The notes under the pieces were generated by a model, which was given only the letters and a program-made list of their open reading frames with translations, was not told the origin of the DNA and did not search any database. 64,000 nucleotides of DNA from Naegleria gruberi (taxonomy: Eukaryota), in assembly GCA_000004985.1 (NCBI GenBank), contig GG738863.1; one strand, given 5' to 3'. Position numbers and translations under genes: made by a program. This document shows positions 35,598-53,724 of the stretch, in pieces (positions within the stretch are counted from its first letter, which is position 1; each line of letters opens with the position of its first letter).

Positions 35598-37359
35598 TCA
35601 TTGTAATAGGCATTTGACATTTTTCAATAAAACTAATTCCTTGTAAGGAAATGTTTTCCATTGTGGGTCTTTCTTAATTTCTTTCAAATGTGAAGCAAAG
35701 GAATATAAAACCACTTTTTGTAATTGTAGAGCTTGGTAGGTTTCTGAAATTTCAAAAATGGTAAACAAGTCAATAGAGCAGTCTTTGAGAGGAGTTTCCA
35801 ATTCTTCATTTACTATTGAAGCAATGTATAATTCGCATATAGAACTCAATGAACTGATCATATACTTATTCGATAGGGTTAGAAGACTTATTGCATTCTC
35901 TTCGGTCATTTCTACCTTTCCAGTACTAATATATTCCACAATTGATTTGAAATGATAATAAAACTTTTCGTCTCCTTCTGAATCATTTGTCAAGTCCACA
36001 ATACAAGATTCACTCTCTGTAAAATTGCCTTCAAACATAATTTGAAAATATTCACAAGCACACGACAGAAAGTTTCTATTCGATTTCAAAATATTGTTCC
36101 CAATCATAAACGAAACATCCAACCAATGAGAATTTTCCAATGTAGATTGCCTAATATTATTGAAATAGGCATTATTAATACTGTTCTTGATATGTTCACG
36201 ATCTAATAAATTCTTATTTAAGTGTGTTATTGCCTCATAGTCTGAGAAAGAAAATGGATTTTGAAAATTAATTCCCTCACTCCAATCTCCAGAGTAAACT
36301 AGTTTCAAAATATCAAGAAGGTCTTTTTTCGAAATATTTTCGAAAGCAATACGAACTACTGATATGTTACTATCCAATTCAATACTAAGGTCAATCTGAA
36401 ACTCTTGCTGAATGGAAATAATTTCGCGTTGATCCAAAGATTGACCATTCGAATTAATGATCACTTCTGAAATTCTTTTCAGTAAAGGACAGGGACAACA
36501 ATATAAAATCCAAGAATGTCCAAATAATTTCCCCTCCACGCCACATTCAAAAATCAAATCGCTCTTCCACTCATTATTCAATAACTTGGAGAACTTGTCC
36601 ACTAGAAAATAATCCTCCACTTCAAATTCAGTCAAATTACTTGGCTCAATTGGTCCTCTGTTGAGAAGGTATTCAAAAAAGTTGTTAACACTCAATTCAG
36701 ACTTGGAGGAACAACTAAAAAATCGATCAATTCTTGGATGTCTTCTCATGAAATTTCTAATTTTCTCTTCGCTCACTCCCTGAAATTTCTCATCAGAAAT
36801 TAAATCATTTTTCATTCCAACCAAAACTACAAAATCTATCTGTGTAGATTTTATAATTTTCATCCATTTAGATTCCAAACTTTCAAAGGTCGTTTCATCA
36901 ACCATTGAAAAACTAAATCCAGTCAATAATAATTTCACACAATCACAAACTCACCAAAGAACCAACACATTCATTGAATTAATAAAAGCTCTTTCAACTT
37001 TAATTATGACATCACATTAAATTCCAATTTCCACTAAAACTCACCACTAATAATTCAAATTGTTTGTTTGAATTTAATTTCCTCACTAAATTACTTACTG
37101 AATTTCATCTCCGATCACATCAAATAATGACAAACAAACAGTTGACGAATTTTTCAACTTGATATTAGCAGACTTTTAAAATTGCAAAATAATATTAGTG
37201 GTGATCGGAATTAAAGAAACTCACATAACTATCCAATCGTCTGGGAACGTATTCTCCTTCGAATAGGGTTTCATCATCAACACCTGTATATTTTAATAGG
37301 AATGTGGTTTTCCCACAACCAATGTCGCCAAGCAATAGCACGGCCAGTGGTGGATCCAT
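35598..37359 (-). CDS. RhoBTB-type atypical Rho GTPase with tandem BTB domains, 4 exons incl. two micro-exons
   Basis: Proposed complement(join(35598..36912,36955..36990,37099..37172,37225..37359)). Introns of 52, 108 and 42 nt all have GTGAGT/GTAAGT donors and AG acceptors. The spliced GTPase domain reads MDPPLAVLLLGDIGCGKTTFLLKYTG...EGEYVPRRLDSY|SANIKLKNSSTVCLSLFDVIGDEI|QAFINSMNVLVLC|FSMVDETTFESLESKWMKII...VVLVGMKNDL, collinear with Rho (P-loop, switch II, LCFS, xKxDL). Two BTB-like regions follow. Confidence 0.7.
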
Positions 37360-43287: not shown

Positions 43288-45475
43288 TAAGTTTTGATTT
43301 GATTGAACAAATCAAATTGAATGAAAAATTTATCATGGATATTCAAGCTTCACTAGGAGAAAATAATGGAAATTCATCTCTAATTTACCCAACCAGTGAG
43401 GAAAAATTTGACAAGTCCACTAAGAAGGAAATGTCACTCTATGTGAATAGAAGTGAATCAGAATTTTCCTACCACACACTCATACTAGATGCCTGTTCCT
43501 CTAATTTATTTACCTATGATACAAAGAAGAGAAAAATTCATTTCAAAGATGCACAAAAAATTAAGGAATTGATTTTGAAATGGACTGAAAGGAGTAAGGA
43601 TACACGAGTAGTTGTCATTTTCAGTGATAAAGACTCTTTCAGAGTTTCTCTCAATATACCTGCTAATCATGTCAATTCTTTAAATGTAATGCATTTGTTG
43701 AGAAATGCCATAATGGAATTGTCATTACCATCACCTGTTTATTATTGTACAGATAATGAAAATAAGGATATTTTTCTACTTATTTGCCAGGTAAGTTTAT
43801 ATTTTATTATTTACCGATTTAATCTATCCTATAATAATTATTCCAGATATTTTACGTTTATTCTATTAAAACGAGTGAATCATTATTAATTTCAGATAAC
43901 AAGATTGATTTACCAAAGACTATATTCAAATTATTCCCAAAACTTTCCTTAATAGATTATTCGAGCTTCTTCTCATTGGAAGATTTAAAATCACATTCAT
44001 TAGAACATAACAATACACCAATATCTAACAATGAAATTATTCCATTAGATTTCAATTCAAATGCAAGAAATATTGAAGCACCAAAACAAAGAAGATATCC
44101 ATTACTGAATCTTTTAAGCGAATCTGAGAATATGACGGATGAGTCTTACGTAGAGTACACTAAAAAGGGAATGTATCACGGTATGATTCTACAGAGACAA
44201 TACATTTCATATTTCGAATATAAGGAAGACTTTTTCGAATGCTCTGAACCAATTTTACTGAATGAAGAAAGTCAATCGAGAGTTATTCTATTTGATGACT
44301 TGGATAGAATGGAAGATGATGACAATCAGGAAGAGGAGCAGGAAGAGAATCCACTAGAAAGACTGAAAAGATTAAAAGAAATGTACAATAGGACAAAACA
44401 TTTAGATTCACAAGGAAGAGCCAATAGTAACGAAGCATATACGAGTGTTACTGTCGCGGGGTCATCTTCTACTGGAGTGTTTGCCATCAAAGATCCCTTT
44501 GGAAGAACAAATTCAACAAATATACCATCCCAAAATGATGGTATGGAACTTTCAACAGCTTCTCAAATGGAAAATGCTGCTCACAATCAGACATCATCAA
44601 CTGGTGTGATGGCCAATAGCGTTTTAGCTGACAGTAAAGTACTTTCAGCTCTCGTTGTGAACATGTCCATTCACCAAGTTATGAATCATTTTGGAATGAC
44701 ATTCTTTCAAAGAGGAAGAGACTATAAGAATGAATACAGAATTGATAATTTCAAAACTAAAATTATCAATAATGTTGCTTTCAAGCTCTATAGTACCTGT
44801 GTTGGTACGAGACCTGAACCATACAAGCAAGAAAGTATCATTAAGGAAGGAAAACTTTTGAAGGCTATTTGTAATTGTCCTATTGGAGCAGAAGGCACAT
44901 GCAAACATATTTGTGCTCAAATTCTAGCATTTAGAGAAAAGGACAAGTATATGAGAGAAAAGTTTGAATCTTTGAACAGTTCCAAGTCTGATAGGTTACT
45001 TCCTCCACCAATACCATTCTCTCAATTAGATCCAGTTCTAGATGATTGGTGTATCAAGGTAAAGGTTATCAAGAAACACAATGAGAAATCATGGGCCAAC
45101 GAGAGAGGTTCTGGACGTGTAGCTGCCATCACCATTGCTGATGAGCTTTCAGGAGATATGTCCCTCTCCTCAAAACAAAACAAGGTTAAATTGATCATGT
45201 TTAATGATTGTATCAATGAATTTTATGATCAAATGGAAGAAGGCGAAAGTTATTATGTCAATAAGGGACATTTAATCAAAAAGCCACACGAAGATTTCTT
45301 TGAAATTCAATTATGTACCAATACTGTAGTAAGAAATATTCATCAGCTCAATGTTAAATTTAAGGATCAACATAATACAAGCGCAGACTATTCAAGAATA
45401 TTCCAAGAGAAACTTCAAACTAAAAATATAGGAATTGAATTTGAGGAATATCCACTCAATTCAAGTACCACATAA
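43288..45475 (+). CDS. SWIM-type zinc finger + OB-fold (RPA-like) protein, 2 exons, 5' end in gap
   Basis: Reading frame open from gap. join(43288..43790,43847..45475) with a 56-nt GTAAGT...TCCAG intron, both phase 0, which removes the apparent TTG start of the track ORF. SWIM motif CNCPIGAEGTCKHICAQ. OB-fold-like WCIKVKVIKKH...GSGRVAAITIADELSGDM...FNDCINEFYDQMEEGESYYV. Confidence 0.5.
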
Positions 45476-45482
45476 TAATTCC

Positions 45483-46673
45483 ATGATTGAACCATCTCCT
45501 GAAAAGAAGAGAAAGATTGAGCAAGTCATTTCTCAAAATAATGCAGAGAATGAAAATATTGAGGATCAAGAAGAGGAGGACCAACCAGAAAGAAGAATAG
45601 TGAATAATGAATACGAATCACCAAATAAGAAGGCAAAACTACCATCCATTGATACTAGGTTTGATGATATTATGAATGCTCAAACAATGGAAAGCCAACA
45701 CTCAATCATTGCATCTCAACCAATGACCTCAACATCCAACGAATCCTGCAAGTCACAAATTATCAATACTCCAAGTACAGGTAAAAAGTCTCAGGTCATT
45801 GAAGAGGAAGTATTCAATGTTGATGAAGATGAGGAAATTCATCAAGTAATTGTTCAAGATGTAGATGAGGAGGAGGATGGGCCAATATTTACTAGTGACA
45901 ATTATCAGAAACCGGCCACTGAGTCTATCCTCGCTAAATCACAACCTTTGAGTTCATCAGAACTAGCAACAAAACCAAACACATCCTCTTCCACTGTACC
46001 ATCCAATAACAACTCACAAAAGAGTAACCATTCCAGTAACAGCTCGAGCACACCCACTCCAAAACCTCATTATTACTTTGATGAAAATGAACAGAGTCAA
46101 ACATTTGAAGATATTTTCTTTACTCCATTCAAAACTCCACAAACTTGCTCCACAAACAAAACAACACCTTCATCCACCTTCTCCCTCAATGCCAAACTAG
46201 AGAATATTCTTATTGACGATGAATCTTCCCCATTCTATCAAAGTGAATCAAAAACTAAGGACTTGATTCCTGATGATGATGTTCAAGAAATTGTAAATAG
46301 TCAAGAATTTGAAAGAAAACCAATGAGCCCTAAATCCCTAAGTCAACACAACAAGCCACAAGTTTTGGATTATGTTGTTTTGAGTGACAATGAAGAAGTG
46401 GAAATTTTGGACTTTGTCACTCCAAGAAAACCAATTCGTAAAAAGACCAAACCTCAATCCCCAATATTTCAACCTCCACCTCCTACCGATATTATTGTAA
46501 GGAAACCTTCTGCTTCAATAATTGTTGAAGAAAAACCAAACCAGCAACCAGAATCTTCCAATAATTCCACCTCAGCTTTAGATAATTCCACAACAACCCC
46601 TTCTTCCACCAAAACTCCTAAAAAAGTCAGTCTCAAATTCCTTCTCGATAACAATGACATGTCTGACTGGTAA
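45483..46673 (+). CDS. acidic Ser/Thr/Pro-rich low-complexity protein (possibly a C-terminal extension of the previous gene)
   Basis: The track start is TTG; the first ATG is 45483, 8 nt after the previous stop, in a different frame. Confidence 0.3.
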   Translation: MIEPSPEKKRKIEQVISQNNAENENIEDQEEEDQPERRIVNNEYESPNKKAKLPSIDTRFDDIMNAQTMESQHSIIASQPMTSTSNESCKSQIINTPSTGKKSQVIEEEVFNVDEDEEIHQVIVQDVDEEEDGPIFTSDNYQKPATESILAKSQPLSSSELATKPNTSSSTVPSNNNSQKSNHSSNSSSTPTPKPHYYFDENEQSQTFEDIFFTPFKTPQTCSTNKTTPSSTFSLNAKLENILIDDESSPFYQSESKTKDLIPDDDVQEIVNSQEFERKPMSPKSLSQHNKPQVLDYVVLSDNEEVEILDFVTPRKPIRKKTKPQSPIFQPPPPTDIIVRKPSASIIVEEKPNQQPESSNNSTSALDNSTTTPSSTKTPKKVSLKFLLDNNDMSDW

Positions 46674-47099: not shown

Positions 47100-48524
47100 A
47101 TGCTCGATATCAACTTGTTAAGAGAATACAAGAACGGAAACCCTGAAATTGTCAGAGAATCCCAACGTAGAAGACACAAGGATGTTGCTCTCGTCGATAA
47201 AGTCATTGAATTGGATGCAGAATGGAGAAAGCTTACTGGTGAAGTTAATGGTATCAAGAACTTGGGCAACATTGTCAGCAAGGAAGTTGGTCAAAGAATG
47301 AAGGCTAAACAACCACTCGGTGATGATATTGAAATCCCACAAGAAATTTTGGCTACTGTCGATAAGAATTTTACAAAGGAAACTCTTGAAAGTGTTTTCC
47401 CTCAACTCAACACAAATCAATTGAAGAAACTTTCTAATCATATTACCGAAGTTCACGTCAAGCAAGCTGATACTGATGCTTCTAATAAGGAAAAGGAAAG
47501 AGATGAAGTTTTGCTTCAACTTGGTAACCTTGTTCACGAAACTGTTGTTGTTAGTGATAATGAAGATAACAATGGTATTGTTCGTTTGGTTGGTAATCCA
47601 AGACCAAAGGTTGATGACAGTGGATTCAAATGTCTTAAACATATTGATATCATGAGAAAGCTCGGATGTTTGGCTACTGAAGAAGGTACTCAAGTTGGTG
47701 GTGGTAGAGGTTATTTCTTGATGGGAGATTTGGTTAGATTGAACTTGGCTCTCCAAAATTATGCTATTCAATTTTTGACTGAAAAGGGATTCTGTCCAAT
47801 GTACACACCATTCTTCATGACAAAGGATCAAATGAAGAGAGTTGCTCAATTATCTCAATTTGATGAAGAATTATATACTGTTTCTGGTGAAGGTGAAGAC
47901 AAGTATTTGATTGCCACTTCTGAACAACCAATTGCTGCTTTCCACTTGGATAAGAGATTTGACGAAAGTGAACTTCCATTGAAGTATTGTGGTATGTCCA
48001 CTTGTTTCAGAAAGGAAGTTGGTGCTCACGGTAAGGATACTTTGGGTATTTTCCGTGTCCATCAATTTGAAAAGATTGAACAATTCGTTGTCACTTCTCC
48101 AAAGGACAATAAGAGTTGGGAAATGTTCGAAGATATGATTGGTAACTCTGAAGCTTTCTATCAATCTCTTGGTCTCTCCTACAGAGTTGTTAATATTGTC
48201 AGTGGTGCTTTGAACAATGCTGCTGCTAAGAAGTTAGATTTGGAAGCTTGGTTCCCAGGTGCTGAAGAAGGTAACGAATATCGTGAATTGGTTTCTTGCT
48301 CTAATTGTACTGACTATCAAGCCAGAAGATTGAACGTCAGATATGGTAAGGCTGCTACTAAGGGTGATGCTGAATTCTGTCACATGTTGAACTCTACATT
48401 GAGTGCTACTTCTAGAACTATTTGTTGTATTGTTGAAAATTACCAAACTCCAGAAGGTGTTAATATTCCAGAAGTTTTACAACCATACATGGGTGGTACC
48501 AAATTCATTCCATACAAGAAGTAA
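47100..48524 (+). CDS. serS: seryl-tRNA synthetase (class II aaRS), cytosolic type, intronless
   Basis: 474 aa. N-terminal coiled-coil arm, class II motifs (FRKEVGAHGKDTLGIFRVHQFEKIEQF, GxGxGxxR-like GGGRGYFL) and C-terminal ...CCIVENYQTPEGVNIPEVLQPYMGG typical of eukaryotic SerRS. Confidence 0.9.
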   Translation: MLDINLLREYKNGNPEIVRESQRRRHKDVALVDKVIELDAEWRKLTGEVNGIKNLGNIVSKEVGQRMKAKQPLGDDIEIPQEILATVDKNFTKETLESVFPQLNTNQLKKLSNHITEVHVKQADTDASNKEKERDEVLLQLGNLVHETVVVSDNEDNNGIVRLVGNPRPKVDDSGFKCLKHIDIMRKLGCLATEEGTQVGGGRGYFLMGDLVRLNLALQNYAIQFLTEKGFCPMYTPFFMTKDQMKRVAQLSQFDEELYTVSGEGEDKYLIATSEQPIAAFHLDKRFDESELPLKYCGMSTCFRKEVGAHGKDTLGIFRVHQFEKIEQFVVTSPKDNKSWEMFEDMIGNSEAFYQSLGLSYRVVNIVSGALNNAAAKKLDLEAWFPGAEEGNEYRELVSCSNCTDYQARRLNVRYGKAATKGDAEFCHMLNSTLSATSRTICCIVENYQTPEGVNIPEVLQPYMGGTKFIPYKK

Positions 48525-48728: not shown

Positions 48729-48819
48729 GGCTACGGCGTCCGATTTGAGAAGTTAAGCATCGTCGAGCCACATCAGTACTGAGGTTGGAGACAACTTGGG
48801 AACCTGTGGTGCTGTAGTC
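48729..48819 (+). rRNA. 5S rRNA gene copy with internal 27-nt deletion (91 nt; likely pseudogene or variant), followed by T-run
   Basis: GGCTACGGC|GTCCGATTTGAGAAGTTAAGCATCGTCGAGCC...GGTTGGAGACAACTTGGGAACCTGTGGTGCTGTAGTC TTTT is 100% identical to the full copy at 53607-53724 apart from lacking nt 10-36 (helix II/loop B). Confidence 0.7.
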
Positions 48820-48875
48820 TTTTATTTTGAAAACCTTTTGGCTATTTTCATCTTCAAAAAAAATGCAAGAAGAAA

Positions 48876-51389
48876 ATGCCACCCTCAATAACTGCAAGTA
48901 ACGAGAAACTAAAATCAAAGAAAACGACAAAGAGGAAAAATGAAGAGGAATATATTCCTTTTGATAATGATGAATTTATTGAGGCAGAGGATGAAACTAC
49001 GAAAGCAAAAAAACCAACAAAAACAAATATTAAGGTTACTACTCACAACAATCCTGTGCCAAGCACACCCAAAAAGAGAAAAACAGGATCTACTGTTGAC
49101 TTTGTTCCTGTAACCACCCCATCCACATATACAAATTCAAACCATAATCCTGTTAAAGTGGATTTTTGCCAGTCAGACCTGGCTAACGATGATAGCCTGT
49201 TTAAAATACCATTTATTAACAGAGAATATGTTTCTCAACAATTAGCAGAATCTCTATTACTCCAAAAATCCACACAAAAAGGAATCCTGCCAATTTTGAG
49301 CCAACATTTTGGAAGTGGAAAGACAGCCCTTGTTGAAAACTTTAGACAAGTTTTAACAAGAAACAATATTTCTCTTGTTGGCACAGAAGAAAATGTCAAG
49401 AGTTTGATGCAGGCTGCCTTGGTTTATTTGGACGTATCAATTGAGGCTCCTTCTGATAAGTTTGAGGATTTAGATTTAAAAGGTATTTTTTTTGAAAATT
49501 GCTTGGAAAGAACATGTGATGCTTTAAAACAGGTTGATGCAACATTCTTGGACGAATCAGAAAAGGAAAAATTGAAAATGAGTTTGTCTGTGATTCAGAA
49601 TATGGTTTGTAATGAAGAACCACTCTACTTGCATCAGAAAGTTGTTGCCTCATTCAAGGATTGTGGTAACATTTTCAACTTTTTTCAAAGATGGTCAAAA
49701 AACCAACTTTTTCCCTTACTTTTATTTTTTGATGAATTTTCCCACTTGGGAGAGAGTGTAATTCTCAAATTTTGGCAAAGGTTGAAACTGCTCTTTGGAT
49801 GTACAAACCCTGGAAAAACTATTAGATATCCAGGTATATATATTGTGGTTGCTGGTAAATCGGCTGCCCTCGCCAAATTAGGAAGAGGTTTCATTGTTTC
49901 TCCAACGCCATCTATTCACATTGTATTGGACATGCTGAAAGTTGAGCATATAGCTGAACTGATAACTGAGTTAGAAATTTCACCAAACAAAAGTATTACA
50001 ATGAAACAATTTTTGGAACAGGAATTCAAAATTGGGAAACATTTTGAGTTTTTTTGTAAAGTTCTTCATGAATATTCTGGAGGAATACCTAGACTAATTA
50101 TCAAAACAGCATTCTCTTTTGTGGACTATTGGCGTAGAACAGGAAAAGCAGTGGAATTGTCTTCACGAGAAAAAATTGAGCTAGTATTTAAAAGTTTCAA
50201 AACAAGTGAAATATTGAGCCATGTAAGAAACCTTTCTGAAATAATTCCATTAACATTTGAGGCTGACCATCCTTCATATTCAACCTTGAAAAGATTTTTC
50301 TATTTTGCAACTGTCGGAATTCCAGTAGAACCAAAAGCAAATATGATTGATCTAATATATGATTTGAATATTGGAGTGGAAACCATGTTGGTAGCAGAGG
50401 AAGATGTTTCACACCAATATTTTCGACCAATTGTTCCAAAATTTATTTCACTTTCAGAAATAGAAATACCTGAAAAAATTCAAATGTTGCAACAAATATT
50501 CTCTCATGGATTTAAAGAGTCTCAATATGTTGACAAAGGAGCATTGCTAGAAATACTTGTACGAGATACCATCATTAGCAAAATTGTTTTTCTTATCACA
50601 GAAAACAAGTTGAAAGGAGGCAAATGGAAAACAATACATCCATGTTTTGCAAAATCAAATCTCTTGAGAGATAAAATTGTCAAGATGGATACACAGTATG
50701 TGAGATACATGCCAAAAATTATTACCAGCAATAAGGCCAAGTGTCATAAAGATTCAGAATACTTTGAAATGGATATTCCTTGGGACCATACAGCATCTGA
50801 TCAAAACTGGAAAAAAGTGAAACAAGTCTTTTTTATTGGTGATTGCCTTGTTCATCCAGCTCCTAAATCAAGGTCAAGTGATTTTTACATCAACCTCCCT
50901 CCTGATTGTGCACTTGCTTTTGCAGTTAAGAATTATCCAAAAACTGTATTTTCAATTCAAATGCTACAACAAGAGATTGATACGTGTTTTTTATCTACAC
51001 AGAAAGGCACTTTTTCAAAGATTACATTATTCGTATTTTGTAGTGGTATTGAACATTCTGATCTTAATAACTATTGCGATCGTGATGGATGTTTGGTTCT
51101 TGAATCTGGAGTTTATGAGTTTGAGGAGAATAATACTATCAAAACAACTCAATCAAGTTTTAAACCAGTTTTTAAAAAACTTAGAAATACACCAAATAAT
51201 ATATCAGAGTACTCACCGCCACACCACGATCTCAAAATTTATATCCCTGACGACATGGAAGTTATCGTTTTAGGCAAGCAAAGTTTTGACTCTTTTTTCA
51301 ATGAAAATGATAGGTCATTATTGCAACGCTTATCAACAGACTTGCCAACTGTTCAACACCTAGAAAGCATTTTACCAAATATTTATTAA
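48876..51389 (+). CDS. uncharacterised P-loop NTPase (837 aa) with basic N-terminal NLS-like region
   Basis: ATG confirmed. Walker A LSQHFGSGKTALVENF, candidate Walker B LLLFFDEFSHLGE, and a large C-terminal region of unknown fold. Lies between the two 5S copies. Confidence 0.55.
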   Translation: MPPSITASNEKLKSKKTTKRKNEEEYIPFDNDEFIEAEDETTKAKKPTKTNIKVTTHNNPVPSTPKKRKTGSTVDFVPVTTPSTYTNSNHNPVKVDFCQSDLANDDSLFKIPFINREYVSQQLAESLLLQKSTQKGILPILSQHFGSGKTALVENFRQVLTRNNISLVGTEENVKSLMQAALVYLDVSIEAPSDKFEDLDLKGIFFENCLERTCDALKQVDATFLDESEKEKLKMSLSVIQNMVCNEEPLYLHQKVVASFKDCGNIFNFFQRWSKNQLFPLLLFFDEFSHLGESVILKFWQRLKLLFGCTNPGKTIRYPGIYIVVAGKSAALAKLGRGFIVSPTPSIHIVLDMLKVEHIAELITELEISPNKSITMKQFLEQEFKIGKHFEFFCKVLHEYSGGIPRLIIKTAFSFVDYWRRTGKAVELSSREKIELVFKSFKTSEILSHVRNLSEIIPLTFEADHPSYSTLKRFFYFATVGIPVEPKANMIDLIYDLNIGVETMLVAEEDVSHQYFRPIVPKFISLSEIEIPEKIQMLQQIFSHGFKESQYVDKGALLEILVRDTIISKIVFLITENKLKGGKWKTIHPCFAKSNLLRDKIVKMDTQYVRYMPKIITSNKAKCHKDSEYFEMDIPWDHTASDQNWKKVKQVFFIGDCLVHPAPKSRSSDFYINLPPDCALAFAVKNYPKTVFSIQMLQQEIDTCFLSTQKGTFSKITLFVFCSGIEHSDLNNYCDRDGCLVLESGVYEFEENNTIKTTQSSFKPVFKKLRNTPNNISEYSPPHHDLKIYIPDDMEVIVLGKQSFDSFFNENDRSLLQRLSTDLPTVQHLESILPNIY

Positions 51390-51725
51390 GTATTGGAATA
51401 GCTTACAAGGTTGAAATTACTTCATTGCAATTAAATGACAGATGACATTAATAAACTTTCACGTTTTTCTATGCTAATATTAAGTGATGTTATGTTTCAT
51501 TTCACTTATATTTGACTCATTCATCAATTAGATTGCCAAGTTTTATCAAGCGATGTTAATTGTTTCATTTCACTAATGTAACCTTCTTGTTTTACCATGA
51601 TGATGACAATGATGCTGTAATTACAGAAGAGTTTTTTACATTTATCCTAAATCCACAAGCACTTGGAACTTATTGGTCAACTTGCTTTTCGAAATGGTAT
51701 TCATGGAAACACAACATTGAAAAAA

Positions 51726-53588
51726 ATGAATACAAATAACCTTCCCACAGATTGCTTGTTGTACTTGTGTGATTTTATGATCCTTCAATTGAATGATTAT
51801 TGCAATATTTTCCTAGTTAACAAACATTGGAGGAATTCATTGGAATTGAATAATCATTTCTGGTTGAGGCAAGTGTGTGGTATTGTTAAAATGGCTTCCG
51901 ATGATCATCATCATTCCTTTGATCAATTGTGTAGCATGGTAATTTATGGAAATTGGACTGAATTCAAATTAAAGTATAAAGGAAATGTGTATTTACATAA
52001 ATTTTGGAAGAGAATTGAAAAGTTAAAGGAAATGAGTAGTGATATTGAACTCTTAAAATCAGCAGCTTTTCAAGTGATTGTGCAATTTCATAGAAATGCA
52101 TCGAGTCAATTTCAAAAAGAACGGTTAAAATTGGAGAACACTCACTATTTGGAAAGGTTTGAAAAGTATCACTTCTTTTATCAAGATGAATATCAGTCGA
52201 ATGTCAATATGATTTTAACAATAGATAGCATGTTCATGACTCATTTCTCTCAGTATTGGGTTTATTTGATAGGCTTTGATACTAAATATCCAAATACACC
52301 AACCAGATTAACAACCATGTTTTTACAGAAATGTATCGAGTCGAAACAGAATTATTGTGGTAAAATGGCAAGTCTATTGTCATTTACTTTGAATAGTGAG
52401 ACACTCATTGGTATAGATGTTGAGAATTTTCTATCAACCTTGATCAATTCATTGCTAAAGTATTTCACAAACCCTAGTATTAGCAAGAATCACAAGCAAA
52501 AGCTCGATCTTTATCAAAAATTGATTGATGAAATGTTTTTGAATTTGAATGAGTATCATAGTGGTGAAATATTTGTTTCAATAATGAAACGACTTCAGTC
52601 TGATATTTTCCCACTTGTTTCCAAAGAAAAGCAACAATGTGAGATTGTCACAATACCAAAATTGTCAAAACAATTATTGAATATTATTTGCCAAGATGGA
52701 AATATGAGAGAAAATATTATCCCTTTCGTATTTTCTAATTTTCGAGTGGAGAGTAACATGTTACAAACCTTATTGAAAAGTTCAAGAGATTCATTTATAG
52801 TGAAATGGTACTATACTACTTTACGAGATGAATTCACATGTGTGATCTATCCTCAAATCGAATATGTGATGGGAGAAGAGTTGATTTCATTTCAAGAATT
52901 GATCCAAACATTGGCTAATCATTACATGAAACGAGGGAAGACATTTAAGAAACTGTTGCAAGATATTCAAAAAACTAGCTGTCCATTCAAAATGGTACTT
53001 AGAAAGGGCGTGGGATTATTAGAAACCATTGAGCATTTGGAATATTACTACCAACTCTACTCGACCAATATGAAGAAGGATGTTGTAAAAGAGTATTTGG
53101 CTGAAGCACTTGGAGAAATGTTTCCAAGTATGATAGAAAGTAGTGGCGTTCCTTTCGCCAAGAGTATTGTCGATCATTACAAGACCAATTTCCATATTCC
53201 TCTTCACAAATGCTCAAAAAAGAATCATGACGCAAACATGTGCTTTGATATTTGTGAGATTTTGACTGCCAATCAAAATTGTCCAAAGAATTGGAAAGAT
53301 AATCAAGCTTACTTTACGATTCATCCAATAGCTTTATATTTAATTGGAAATAGGTATTGTTATGGTGGAAATCTTGATCTTTCGAGCTTTCTTCCTGAAT
53401 ATGGAGAAACTATAATTACAGTTCCAATTTTGATAGATTTTGTGAGAACCTATACTGGTAATGATAGTTCACCAATTTATAGTTTTCCCTATTCGAAAGT
53501 TCCACCAACATCTATTCGATTCATTTTGAAGAAGGTCACATTGAAAACCTTACTTGAAAATCCAATGCTTATTCTGGATCACCTGTAG
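51726..53588 (+). CDS. F-box-like protein (620 aa), function unknown
   Basis: The track start 51663 is TTG; the first ATG is 51726 in an AAAAAAATG context, giving MNTNNLPTDCLLYLCDFMILQLNDYCNIFLVNKHWRNS (F-box-like). Second gene between the 5S copies. Confidence 0.5.
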   Translation: MNTNNLPTDCLLYLCDFMILQLNDYCNIFLVNKHWRNSLELNNHFWLRQVCGIVKMASDDHHHSFDQLCSMVIYGNWTEFKLKYKGNVYLHKFWKRIEKLKEMSSDIELLKSAAFQVIVQFHRNASSQFQKERLKLENTHYLERFEKYHFFYQDEYQSNVNMILTIDSMFMTHFSQYWVYLIGFDTKYPNTPTRLTTMFLQKCIESKQNYCGKMASLLSFTLNSETLIGIDVENFLSTLINSLLKYFTNPSISKNHKQKLDLYQKLIDEMFLNLNEYHSGEIFVSIMKRLQSDIFPLVSKEKQQCEIVTIPKLSKQLLNIICQDGNMRENIIPFVFSNFRVESNMLQTLLKSSRDSFIVKWYYTTLRDEFTCVIYPQIEYVMGEELISFQELIQTLANHYMKRGKTFKKLLQDIQKTSCPFKMVLRKGVGLLETIEHLEYYYQLYSTNMKKDVVKEYLAEALGEMFPSMIESSGVPFAKSIVDHYKTNFHIPLHKCSKKNHDANMCFDICEILTANQNCPKNWKDNQAYFTIHPIALYLIGNRYCYGGNLDLSSFLPEYGETIITVPILIDFVRTYTGNDSSPIYSFPYSKVPPTSIRFILKKVTLKTLLENPMLILDHL

Positions 53589-53601: not shown

Positions 53602-53606
53602 AAAAA
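53602..53606 (-). terminator. RNA polymerase III oligo-T terminator of the 5S gene
   Basis: TTTTT directly 3' of the 5S 3' end on the minus strand. Confidence 0.6.
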
Positions 53607-53724
53607 GACTACAGCACCACAGGTTCCCAAGTTGTCTCCAACCTCAGTACTGATGTGGCTCGACGATGCTTAACTTCTCAAATCGGACGGGATGAGGTGC
53701 ATTCATCGTGATATGGCCGTAGCC
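53607..53724 (-). rRNA. 5S rRNA gene (118 nt), Pol III T5 terminator immediately 3'
   Basis: Minus strand reads GGCTACGGCCATATCACGATGAATGCACCTCATCCCGTCCGATTTGAGAAGTTAAGCATCGTCGAGCCACATCAGTACTGAGGTTGGAGACAACTTGGGAACCTGTGGTGCTGTAGTC. This matches the universal eukaryotic 5S pattern (GGCTACGGCCATA..., ...GAAGTTAAGC..., ...AGTACT..., ...TGGGAGAC-like..., GGTGCTGTAG) and has helix I pairing between the two ends. TTTTT follows at 53602-53606. Confidence 0.85.

Follow-up and report, generated by a model that had tools for sequence, protein, structure and literature searches.

Two genes between 5S rRNA copies in Naegleria gruberi: a putative STAND/AAA+ ATPase-nuclease and an F-box-like protein

ORF1 and ORF2 are two adjacent open reading frames (ORFs) on the + strand of a 64,000-nucleotide (nt) stretch of Naegleria gruberi contig GG738863.1 (GenBank assembly GCA_000004985.1), referred to below as the window, where they lie between two copies of the 5S ribosomal RNA (rRNA) gene. 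Conserved motifs and a predicted structure mark ORF1 as a P-loop NTPase of STAND/AAA+ type, as opposed to a compact AAA+ protein. It belongs to a small protist family of ~20 representatives that domain libraries miss, and it is not a complete orphan. The C-terminal domain of ORF1 is probably, on the evidence of the same structural model and of conserved residues, a restriction endonuclease (REase)-like nuclease of the PD-(D/E)XK type. The interpretation put forward here, which we favour modestly when its parts are taken jointly, is that ORF1 is a STAND/AAA+ ATPase fused to an REase-type nuclease and would act as an ATP-gated nuclear DNA nuclease, that ORF2 starts with an F-box, and that the two are independent, ordinary single-copy nuclear protein-coding genes, both uncharacterised, whose position between dispersed 5S units is due to chance. 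What is new is the assignment of ORF1 at the level of the ATPase fold together with the probable REase-type domain, which would place the protein among known AAA+/STAND-plus-REase proteins.

The two genes and the ORF1 family

The coding sequence of ORF1 (48876-51389, +; 837 amino acids, aa) specifies a protein that is 100% identical over its full length to the N. gruberi predicted protein EFC45320.1 (NAEGRDRAFT_66589, UniProt D2VCJ1). ORF2 (51726-53588, +; 620 aa from the annotated ATG) is likewise 100% identical, full length, to the predicted protein EFC45321.1 (NAEGRDRAFT_66590), and both genes are located on one nuclear contig of 467,654 bp. (The open frame of ORF2 begins further upstream, at 51663, than the annotated ATG at 51726.) A preliminary description of this DNA, made from its letters, had placed two ORFs here, and the annotated proteins bear this out. 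With stop triplets at a frequency of 5.7% in the window, open runs of 837 codons (ORF1) and 620 codons (ORF2) would arise by chance with P ~4e-22 and ~1.5e-16, respectively, and neither is therefore a chance ORF. A spacer of 336 bp separates the two genes, which have the same orientation. They are dissimilar to each other and neither has a paralog elsewhere in the window. Their locus tags are not mentioned in any paper found by a literature search.

An exhaustive HMMER search of 1.84 billion representative sequences yields 20 relatives of ORF1 at E <=1e-3. Two of these are N. gruberi paralogs, EFC37970 (P0003; 765 aa, 36% identity) and EFC38922 (P0004; 749 aa, 34% identity). Several metagenome fragments are 40-47% identical to ORF1 and presumably come from other heteroloboseans, while more distant relatives are encoded by metagenome contigs of eukaryotic appearance, where adjacent genes specify 14-3-3, FHA, cytochrome P450, CHASE+RGS and similar proteins. 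One family member comes from an NCBI assembly. A word-indexed homolog search retrieves only the self-match with ORF1 as query and one additional sequence with the family alignment; scans of viral and metagenome contigs for further relatives add none. The suggestion of the preliminary description that ORF1 might represent an orphan family is thus too strong. Its description of ORF1 as uncharacterised holds with regard to domain libraries: in searches of Pfam, NCBIfam, PADLOC and PHROGs with ORF1, ORF2 and all family members, nothing exceeds threshold. The weak Pfam matches of the ORF1 family are recurrent and all of one kind, namely ATPase_2 (at best 15.6 bits; cut-off 33.2), AAA_22 (17.7 bits; cut-off 27) and AAA_16 (E 0.013). 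Sequence and profile searches of the PDB with the whole proteins, with an N-terminal profile (A8) and with a C-terminal profile (A4) give nothing significant.

Some members of the family have peculiarities of their own. Both N. gruberi paralogs begin with MG, a possible N-myristoylation signal that ORF1 does not have; P0003 diverges past the FAxKN strand (described below), and P0004 lacks the stretch before the PAPKS motif. These divergences may reflect degenerate copies or gene-model errors. The closest metagenomic relative (L004, 949-3311; 33-42% identity) has been called as three genes of 466, 65 and 237 aa. By tblastn these are contiguous segments of one ORF1-like gene, which implies a frameshift, an intron or a sequencing error in the contig. 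In a distant relative on a eukaryotic metagenome contig (P0017, at L002 716-2935), the C-terminal REase-like domain is interrupted by a PHD finger (Pfam E 1.8e-8) together with an acidic stretch, an insertion that suggests chromatin as the target of the family.

Domain structure of ORF1

The N-terminal region of ORF1 (48876-49190, +; aa 1-105) is basic and of low complexity, with an isoelectric point of 9.2 over the first 100 aa. It contains the stretches KSKKTTKRK and TPKKRKT, which resemble a nuclear localisation signal (NLS), so that the NLS-like character that had been ascribed to it is confirmed. In a single-sequence structure prediction its mean predicted local distance difference test score (pLDDT) is ~30, and it is probably disordered. 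In the alignment, the Naegleria-type relatives share with ORF1 a [ST]PxK motif and, after it, a basic cluster. ORF1 has no signal peptide and no transmembrane segment (the maximal Kyte-Doolittle window in the first 40 aa is -0.33, that is, hydrophilic).

The AAA+/STAND-type ATPase module follows (49203-50435, +; aa ~110-520). Just upstream of its P-loop helix lies the motif FINRE (49212-49226, +; family consensus FVNRE), in which F113 is conserved in 9/10, N115 in 11/11 and R116 in 9/11 of the aligned sequences, and which resembles the F-x-x-R-E lead-in of ATPase_2, AAA_16 and Cdc6-type ATPases. Walker A reads QHFGSGKT (49302-49325, +; aa 143-150), with Q143, G146, G148, K149 and T150 invariant in the family: the GxxGxGK[ST] pattern is present, but its first Gly is replaced by the invariant Gln. 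Walker B reads LLLFFDE (49716-49736, +; aa 281-287), with D286 conserved in 12/13 sequences, and falls on strand E181-186 of the model described below. Other features conserved in the family alignment are a V-x-GKS strand/turn, represented in ORF1 by the sensor-1-like YIVVAGKS (49839-49862, +; aa 322-329; G327 in 13/16, S329 in 13/14; model strand E221-227); an S-P...H-x-x-L-x-x-L pattern; and an invariant G-x-P-R, represented by the sensor-2-like SGGIPR of the lid (50076-50093, +; aa 401-406; G403 in 15/15, R406 in 16/16).

Prediction of the ORF1 structure with AlphaFold from the single sequence is unusable (pLDDT 32). When the family alignment is supplied (23 sequences, many of them fragments), a model of aa 101-837 is obtained, with a pLDDT of 78.4 and a predicted template-modelling score (pTM) of 0.60. 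It consists of an α/β core (aa ~110-330), a helical lid that bears GGIPR (~345-425) and a winged helix (~466-519), followed by the C-terminal domain. The predicted ATPase fold (core, lid and winged helix) superimposes on solved AAA+/STAND members, and CED-4, NLRs, ORC/Cdc6, TnsC and MuB are among the fold neighbours of the whole model. The preliminary description had found the two Walker motifs about 140 residues apart and had guessed from this spacing at a STAND-like protein, atypical for compact AAA+. Both motifs are indeed there, the distance from K149 to D286 is 137 aa, and the guess was a good one, the long spacing corresponding in the model to an inserted helix bundle (aa ~160-275).

A fold search of BFVD returned only ATPase-type matches and uncharacterised giant-virus proteins. 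Two of the latter, A0A481Z7L9 of Pithovirus LCPAC104 and A0A3G5AHI5 of Sylvanvirus (513-624 aa), align with the ORF1 model over ~500-590 columns (E 6e-7 and 1e-4), and their similarity to it may go beyond the ATPase domain.

The C-terminal α/β domain (50508-51350, +; aa ~545-825) is the best-conserved and most confidently modelled part of ORF1, with a pLDDT of 84-90 over aa ~640-760. Its elements are predicted to follow one another in the order α-β-β-β-α-β. The helix at aa 554-575 (α1) carries G-x-LLE, with E559 in 13/14 sequences. The first predicted strand (658-661) leads into PAPKSRSSD (50856-50882, +; aa 661-669), which is the most conserved stretch of the domain, stands directly before strand 670-674 (β2) and takes the form PAPKSxSxD in the family; S665 is invariant and D669, the candidate catalytic residue with which the motif ends, is found in 14/16. 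Strand 678-686 (β3) contains FAVKN (FAxKN in the family; 50919-50933, +; aa 682-686), with K685 in 15/15, and the helix past it (694-711, α2) contains QQEID (50967-50981, +; aa 698-702) as part of an LQxEIxK motif, with E700 in 12/12. A hydrophobic strand (715-723) and, later, a conserved MEVIVLG strand (794-800) complete the domain. It is the αβββαβ order, together with the placement of E559, D669, K685 and E700 at REase core positions, that argues for an REase fold, with a candidate active site made up of E559, S665/S667/D669, K685 and E700. The ~500 residues of C-terminal sequence that the preliminary description had left unassigned are still named by no library, but resolve into lid, winged helix and this probable REase-like domain. 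Its remark that no DDE, tyrosine or serine recombinase is recognisable stands as far as these enzymes go, none having been found; as a statement that there is no recombinase-like feature it calls for qualification, since nucleases of REase fold occur as transposase subunits (TnsA, for example).

Several points weigh against the interpretation of ORF1 and ORF2 given at the outset. The canonical D/E that should stand two residues before K685 is Ala (Ala683) in most members of the family; across the family the position is occupied by Ala, Gln or Val (Gln in two distant members). No candidate arginine finger is conserved past sensor 1, an LGRG motif being confined to close members, and ATP hydrolysis in trans is consequently uncertain. 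The structure model is built on 23 sequences only, many of which are fragments. With the C-terminal domain as query, Pfam and PHROGs give nothing and the PDB profile search gives 0 matches; in three fold searches with the whole model, the lists were filled by the ATPase and no REase match was seen among them. A comparison by hhalign of the C-terminal domain with TnsA (as an alignment of 13 sequences rebuilt from plasmid records) is not significant (P = 0.028, probability 1.8%, 33 columns); this sole alignment sets D669 opposite the invariant D114 of TnsA. On the side of ORF2, the F-box match is below threshold and there are no homologs by which to gauge its conservation.

The missing acidic residue of the (D/E)xK motif is also an argument for a different view of ORF1, as a STAND/AAA+ switch or scaffold that is not a nuclease and whose C-terminal part is a DNA-, chromatin- or protein-binding module, or has some other fold. 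Such a protein would act in signalling, chromatin or replication-related assembly, as do ORC/Cdc6, CED-4 and NLRs. All three are among the fold neighbours, no nuclease family emerges from any profile search, and the [ST]PxK motif with its NLS-like cluster is reminiscent of Cdc6 regulation. We nevertheless consider this view unlikely, if far from negligible. The residues E559, D669, K685 and E700 are near-invariant even in very divergent members, at exact REase core positions, and a housekeeping initiator would not be expected to belong to a family as tiny and patchy as this one, with several copies in N. gruberi. By analogy, E700 could be a 'migrated' acidic residue in a PD-xxK-E arrangement like that of Cfr10I, in which the equivalent site is catalytically active (PMC3424549).

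If ORF1 is an ATPase fused to a nuclease, nucleotide would bind to the ATPase while the winged helix sits on DNA, and this would make the protein switch conformation or oligomerise, so that the C-terminal nuclease is positioned or activated. Both the ATP gating and the nuclease activity are proposed by analogy with prokaryotic AAA+/STAND-nuclease fusions and with TnsC/TnsA, as these are thought to operate. The protein would presumably be localised to the nucleus: the NLS-like N-terminus, the [ST]PxK motif, the lack of a signal peptide or transmembrane segment and the PHD finger of P0017 all speak for an intracellular, chromatin-directed role in that compartment and not for a secreted toxin. 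Because the distribution of the family is small, patchy and multi-paralog, it suggests a conflict-related or domesticated selfish gene and not a housekeeping gene; the biological role of ORF1 would then probably lie in genome conflict, as defence or as a domesticated selfish element.

ORF2, the 5S copies and the surrounding genes

At its extreme N-terminus ORF2 carries an F-box-like motif (51735-51869, +; aa 4-48, NNLPTDCLLYLCDFMILQLNDYCNIFLVNKHWRNSLELNNHFW) with the pattern LPxD...L...LVNKxW...W (LVNKHW...FW). When the first 80 residues are scanned with the Pfam F-box-like profile, profile positions 2-43 of 47 are matched with 13.5 bits (cut-off 24.3) and E 0.062, so the F-box-like opening of ORF2 that the preliminary description had pointed out is present, though below the Pfam threshold. 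An F-box is plausible because of the extreme N-terminal position and the LPxD...L...VNKxW...W pattern, and to judge by these features of the sequence it is likely. A homolog search of 5.8 billion sequences finds only ORF2 itself; the protein as a whole has no domain match, and no LRR, WD40 or Kelch repeats are recognised after the motif. Set beside F-box proteins in general, ORF2 has a motif that spans nearly the whole profile, whereas the score is sub-threshold, homologs are lacking and no substrate-binding domain is recognised. It is a lineage-specific protein that its probable F-box would make a candidate substrate adaptor of Skp1-Cullin-F-box (SCF) ubiquitin ligase.

The spacer upstream of ORF2 contains an imperfect direct repeat of ~32 nt, TAT[TC]AAG[TC]GATGTTA..TGTTTCATTTCACT[TA]AT, at 51478-51509 and 51544-51577 (copies 66-68 nt apart). 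It does not occur elsewhere within the window, and may be a promoter element of ORF2.

Nothing beyond adjacency links ORF2 functionally to ORF1. A functional pair has been considered, in which the F-box protein targets the ATPase-nuclease or the targets of the latter for SCF degradation, in a toxin/antidote-like or regulator/effector relationship. In favour of such a pair, the genes are neighbours of like orientation with the short spacer already noted between them, and ubiquitin-mediated 'antidote' control of a Crinkler-like toxin provides a precedent (PMC12957317). What makes the pair improbable is that ORF2 has no homolog anywhere, so that the pairing is not conserved, that tblastn of the loci of ORF1 relatives reveals no ORF2 homolog, and that the F-box is itself sub-threshold.

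The two 5S rRNA copies that flank the genes face inward and so bracket ORF1 and ORF2. Both are flanking features: the left copy lies at 48729-48820 (+; 42 bits), and the right copy, a full-length gene, at 53606-53724 (-; 105 bits). The left copy has lost 27 internal nt in a clean deletion (approximately positions 11-37 of the RNA), and over 87 nt what is left of it matches the full copy at 100% identity. It retains the upstream element and the T-run; it is probably a young pseudogene, and could still be transcribed. Similarity between the copies extends ~30 nt upstream of each and ends at the downstream T-run. Since it stops there, the repeated unit is just the 5S gene with its promoter-proximal element.

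The preliminary description had regarded the two genes as the cargo of a cassette. A segment between inverted 5S copies that is mobile or amplified, with ORF1 and ORF2 as its cargo or machinery, has a certain appeal: the inverted copies, identical over 87 nt, bracket exactly two ORFs, ORF1 has a TnsC-like ATPase fold and possibly a TnsA-like nuclease, and transposase fragments are found near two distant ORF1 relatives. On present evidence, though, such a cassette is very improbable. Each of the genes forms a one-member cluster at 90% identity, and at the protein level the nearest paralogs of ORF1 are only 34-36% identical, which argues against recent amplification; a copy-number check had been proposed, and it turns up no extra near-identical copies among proteins. 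Five loci of ORF1 relatives (36 kb in total) have no 5S gene by Rfam and no ORF2 homolog by tblastn. Each repeat is a complete 5S unit, upstream element and T-run included, with no similarity beyond. A domain scan reveals no DDE, tyrosine or serine recombinase, and both the GC content (0.32-0.36) and the GC content at third codon positions (GC3) of ORF1 and ORF2 are like those of neighbouring genes.

The proximity of the two 5S copies is itself unexceptional. The N. gruberi genome is ~41 Mb in size. It contains ~279 5S genes, some of them in tandem (PMC3369914). Under random dispersal of that many copies over such a genome, a second 5S gene is expected within 5 kb of a given copy in ~7% of cases, which is not rare. 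The notion of a cassette cargo is, then, not sustained by the single-copy status of the genes, by their neighbour-like GC and GC3, by the relatives' loci or by the number of dispersed 5S copies. A 5S-bounded transposon was likewise tried as an explanation and rejected, the genes being single-copy, a recombinase being absent and the repeats being ordinary 5S units.

The transposase fragments just mentioned lie some kb from the two distant relatives: one is of DDE_3 type (L002, 4768-5286) and the other is an hAT dimerisation domain (L008, 12286-12723). Their association with the family is inconsistent across the relatives' loci.

Upstream of the two genes lies a seryl-tRNA synthetase gene (47100-48524). 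Other neighbours encode VPS9+MIT, SAP, Ras+BTB, LRR and F5/8 type C proteins or are Naegleria orphans; several of the neighbouring ORFs are as unassignable as ORF2, N. gruberi being rich in such orphans. At 43976-46673 (+) there are two overlapping long ORFs of 499 and 412 aa, rich in S, T, N and P, of low complexity and with no Pfam match, which probably represent a single gene interrupted by an intron or frameshift. The ORF at 35598-36938 (-) encodes a fragment of a Ras-family GTPase together with a BTB domain, in a RhoBTB-like architecture.

Comparison with known systems

If ORF1 is what it is proposed to be, then N. gruberi and a few other protists have, in the nucleus, an ATPase-nuclease of the kind known from prokaryotic transposition and anti-phage defence and from the Crinkler toxins of oomycetes and fungi, which would add a data point on the spread of conflict modules into free-living eukaryotes. 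To the extent that the proposal holds, it defines a family, ~20 sequences strong and clear in its motifs, that is missing from current domain libraries. This is a modest gain in annotation and not a new principle, and nothing in the gene pair speaks for a novel type of mobile element. A more far-reaching conjecture is that the ORF1 family is, as a nuclear, ATP-gated REase nuclease, the eukaryotic counterpart of the prokaryotic immune or selfish modules Avs, NACHT-Mrr, DUF1703 and TnsC-TnsA, acquired by heterolobosean and other protists and restrained in N. gruberi by the adjacent lineage-specific F-box protein through SCF degradation, so that the two genes would make up a toxin/antidote-like pair or an immune effector with its regulator; to this we assign little probability.

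Among the fold neighbours, ORC/Cdc6 was tried as an identification and rejected. ORF1 has no Cdc6 or ORC match in Pfam, and its family, with 20 representatives in 1.84 billion sequences and three paralogs in N. gruberi, is not conserved across eukaryotes: ORC/Cdc6 proteins are neighbours in fold and not orthologs. A well-known housekeeping family with single-copy orthologs, which had been named in the preliminary description as the competing identification, is accordingly not what is found; there are ORC/Cdc6 fold neighbours, but no single-copy orthologous group. From the STAND proteins CED-4, NLR and Avs, ORF1 differs in having no repeat-type sensor domain and in the C-terminal position of its putative nuclease.

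Similarities are also seen with the archaeal ATPase_2 proteins (PF01637; 2qen, PAB2304 and 2fna, SSO1545), which have the same F-x-N-R-E lead-in, GxGKT, hhhhDE and, in the lid, G-x-P-R. ATPase_2 genes are also multi-copy and patchily distributed, as are those of the ORF1 family. ORF1 differs in being eukaryotic, in the helical insertion (~110 aa) that lies between its two Walker motifs, in its NLS-like N-terminus and in its C-terminal domain, and its family stays below the ATPase_2 threshold of Pfam (15.6 against 33.2 bits at best).

An NTPase, a helix-turn-helix (HTH) and an REase domain, in that order, constitute the commonest C-terminus of Crinkler (CR) effectors, according to Zhang et al. 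2016 as summarised in PMC5289972. ORF1 would be a eukaryotic protein with the same three parts in the same order, the comparison being one of domain order. This order is what recommends ORF1 as a Crinkler-type effector or toxin, secreted or otherwise delivered; yet there is no CR header (no Crinkler match in Pfam), no LxLFLAK or HVLVxxP motif and no signal peptide, and the N-terminus is instead basic and NLS-like. We regard a Crinkler-type toxin as quite improbable. A Crinkler effector with a header domain, specifically, was rejected, since the header, the motifs and the secretion signal are all absent from ORF1. Zhang et al. 2016 reportedly proposed that the Crinkler module stems from Tn7/Mu-type transposon proteins, which fits the TnsC and MuB fold matches of ORF1.

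In Tn7 itself, TnsC (an AAA+ regulator) and TnsA (a transposase subunit of REase fold) are separate proteins, whereas in ORF1 both functions would be combined in one chain. D669 is aligned with D114 of TnsA, in an hhalign comparison that is not significant (P = 0.028). TnsA carries QxK at the lysine motif, and so do two distant members of the ORF1 family. No DDE domain or TnsB-type transposase is found in ORF1, ORF2 or the tested neighbouring ORFs, and there are no terminal repeats besides the 5S genes.

The prokaryotic AAA+-REase fusions offer a clear precedent for the architecture proposed for ORF1. DUF1703 proteins have a four-part layout in which a PF01637-like AAA+ domain is combined with a helical region and an REase domain, and a NACHT-Mrr fusion is described likewise (PMC1913061). 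DUF234 and DUF4143, the partners of ATPase_2 and AAA_14, respectively, are catalogued as PD-(D/E)XK families (PMC3424549). These families are prokaryotic, their site is the canonical D...ExK where that of ORF1 is D...AxK...E, and no sequence relationship of ORF1 to their Pfam models (DUF1703 with AAA-ATPase_like + PDDEXK_9, ATPase_2 + DUF234, AAA_14 + DUF4143, NACHT-Mrr) is detected at E <=1. Like these fusions, ORF1 has an acidic residue in the first core helix and, at sensor 1, a conserved Gly (FLTGKVS in DUF1703, VVAGKS in ORF1).

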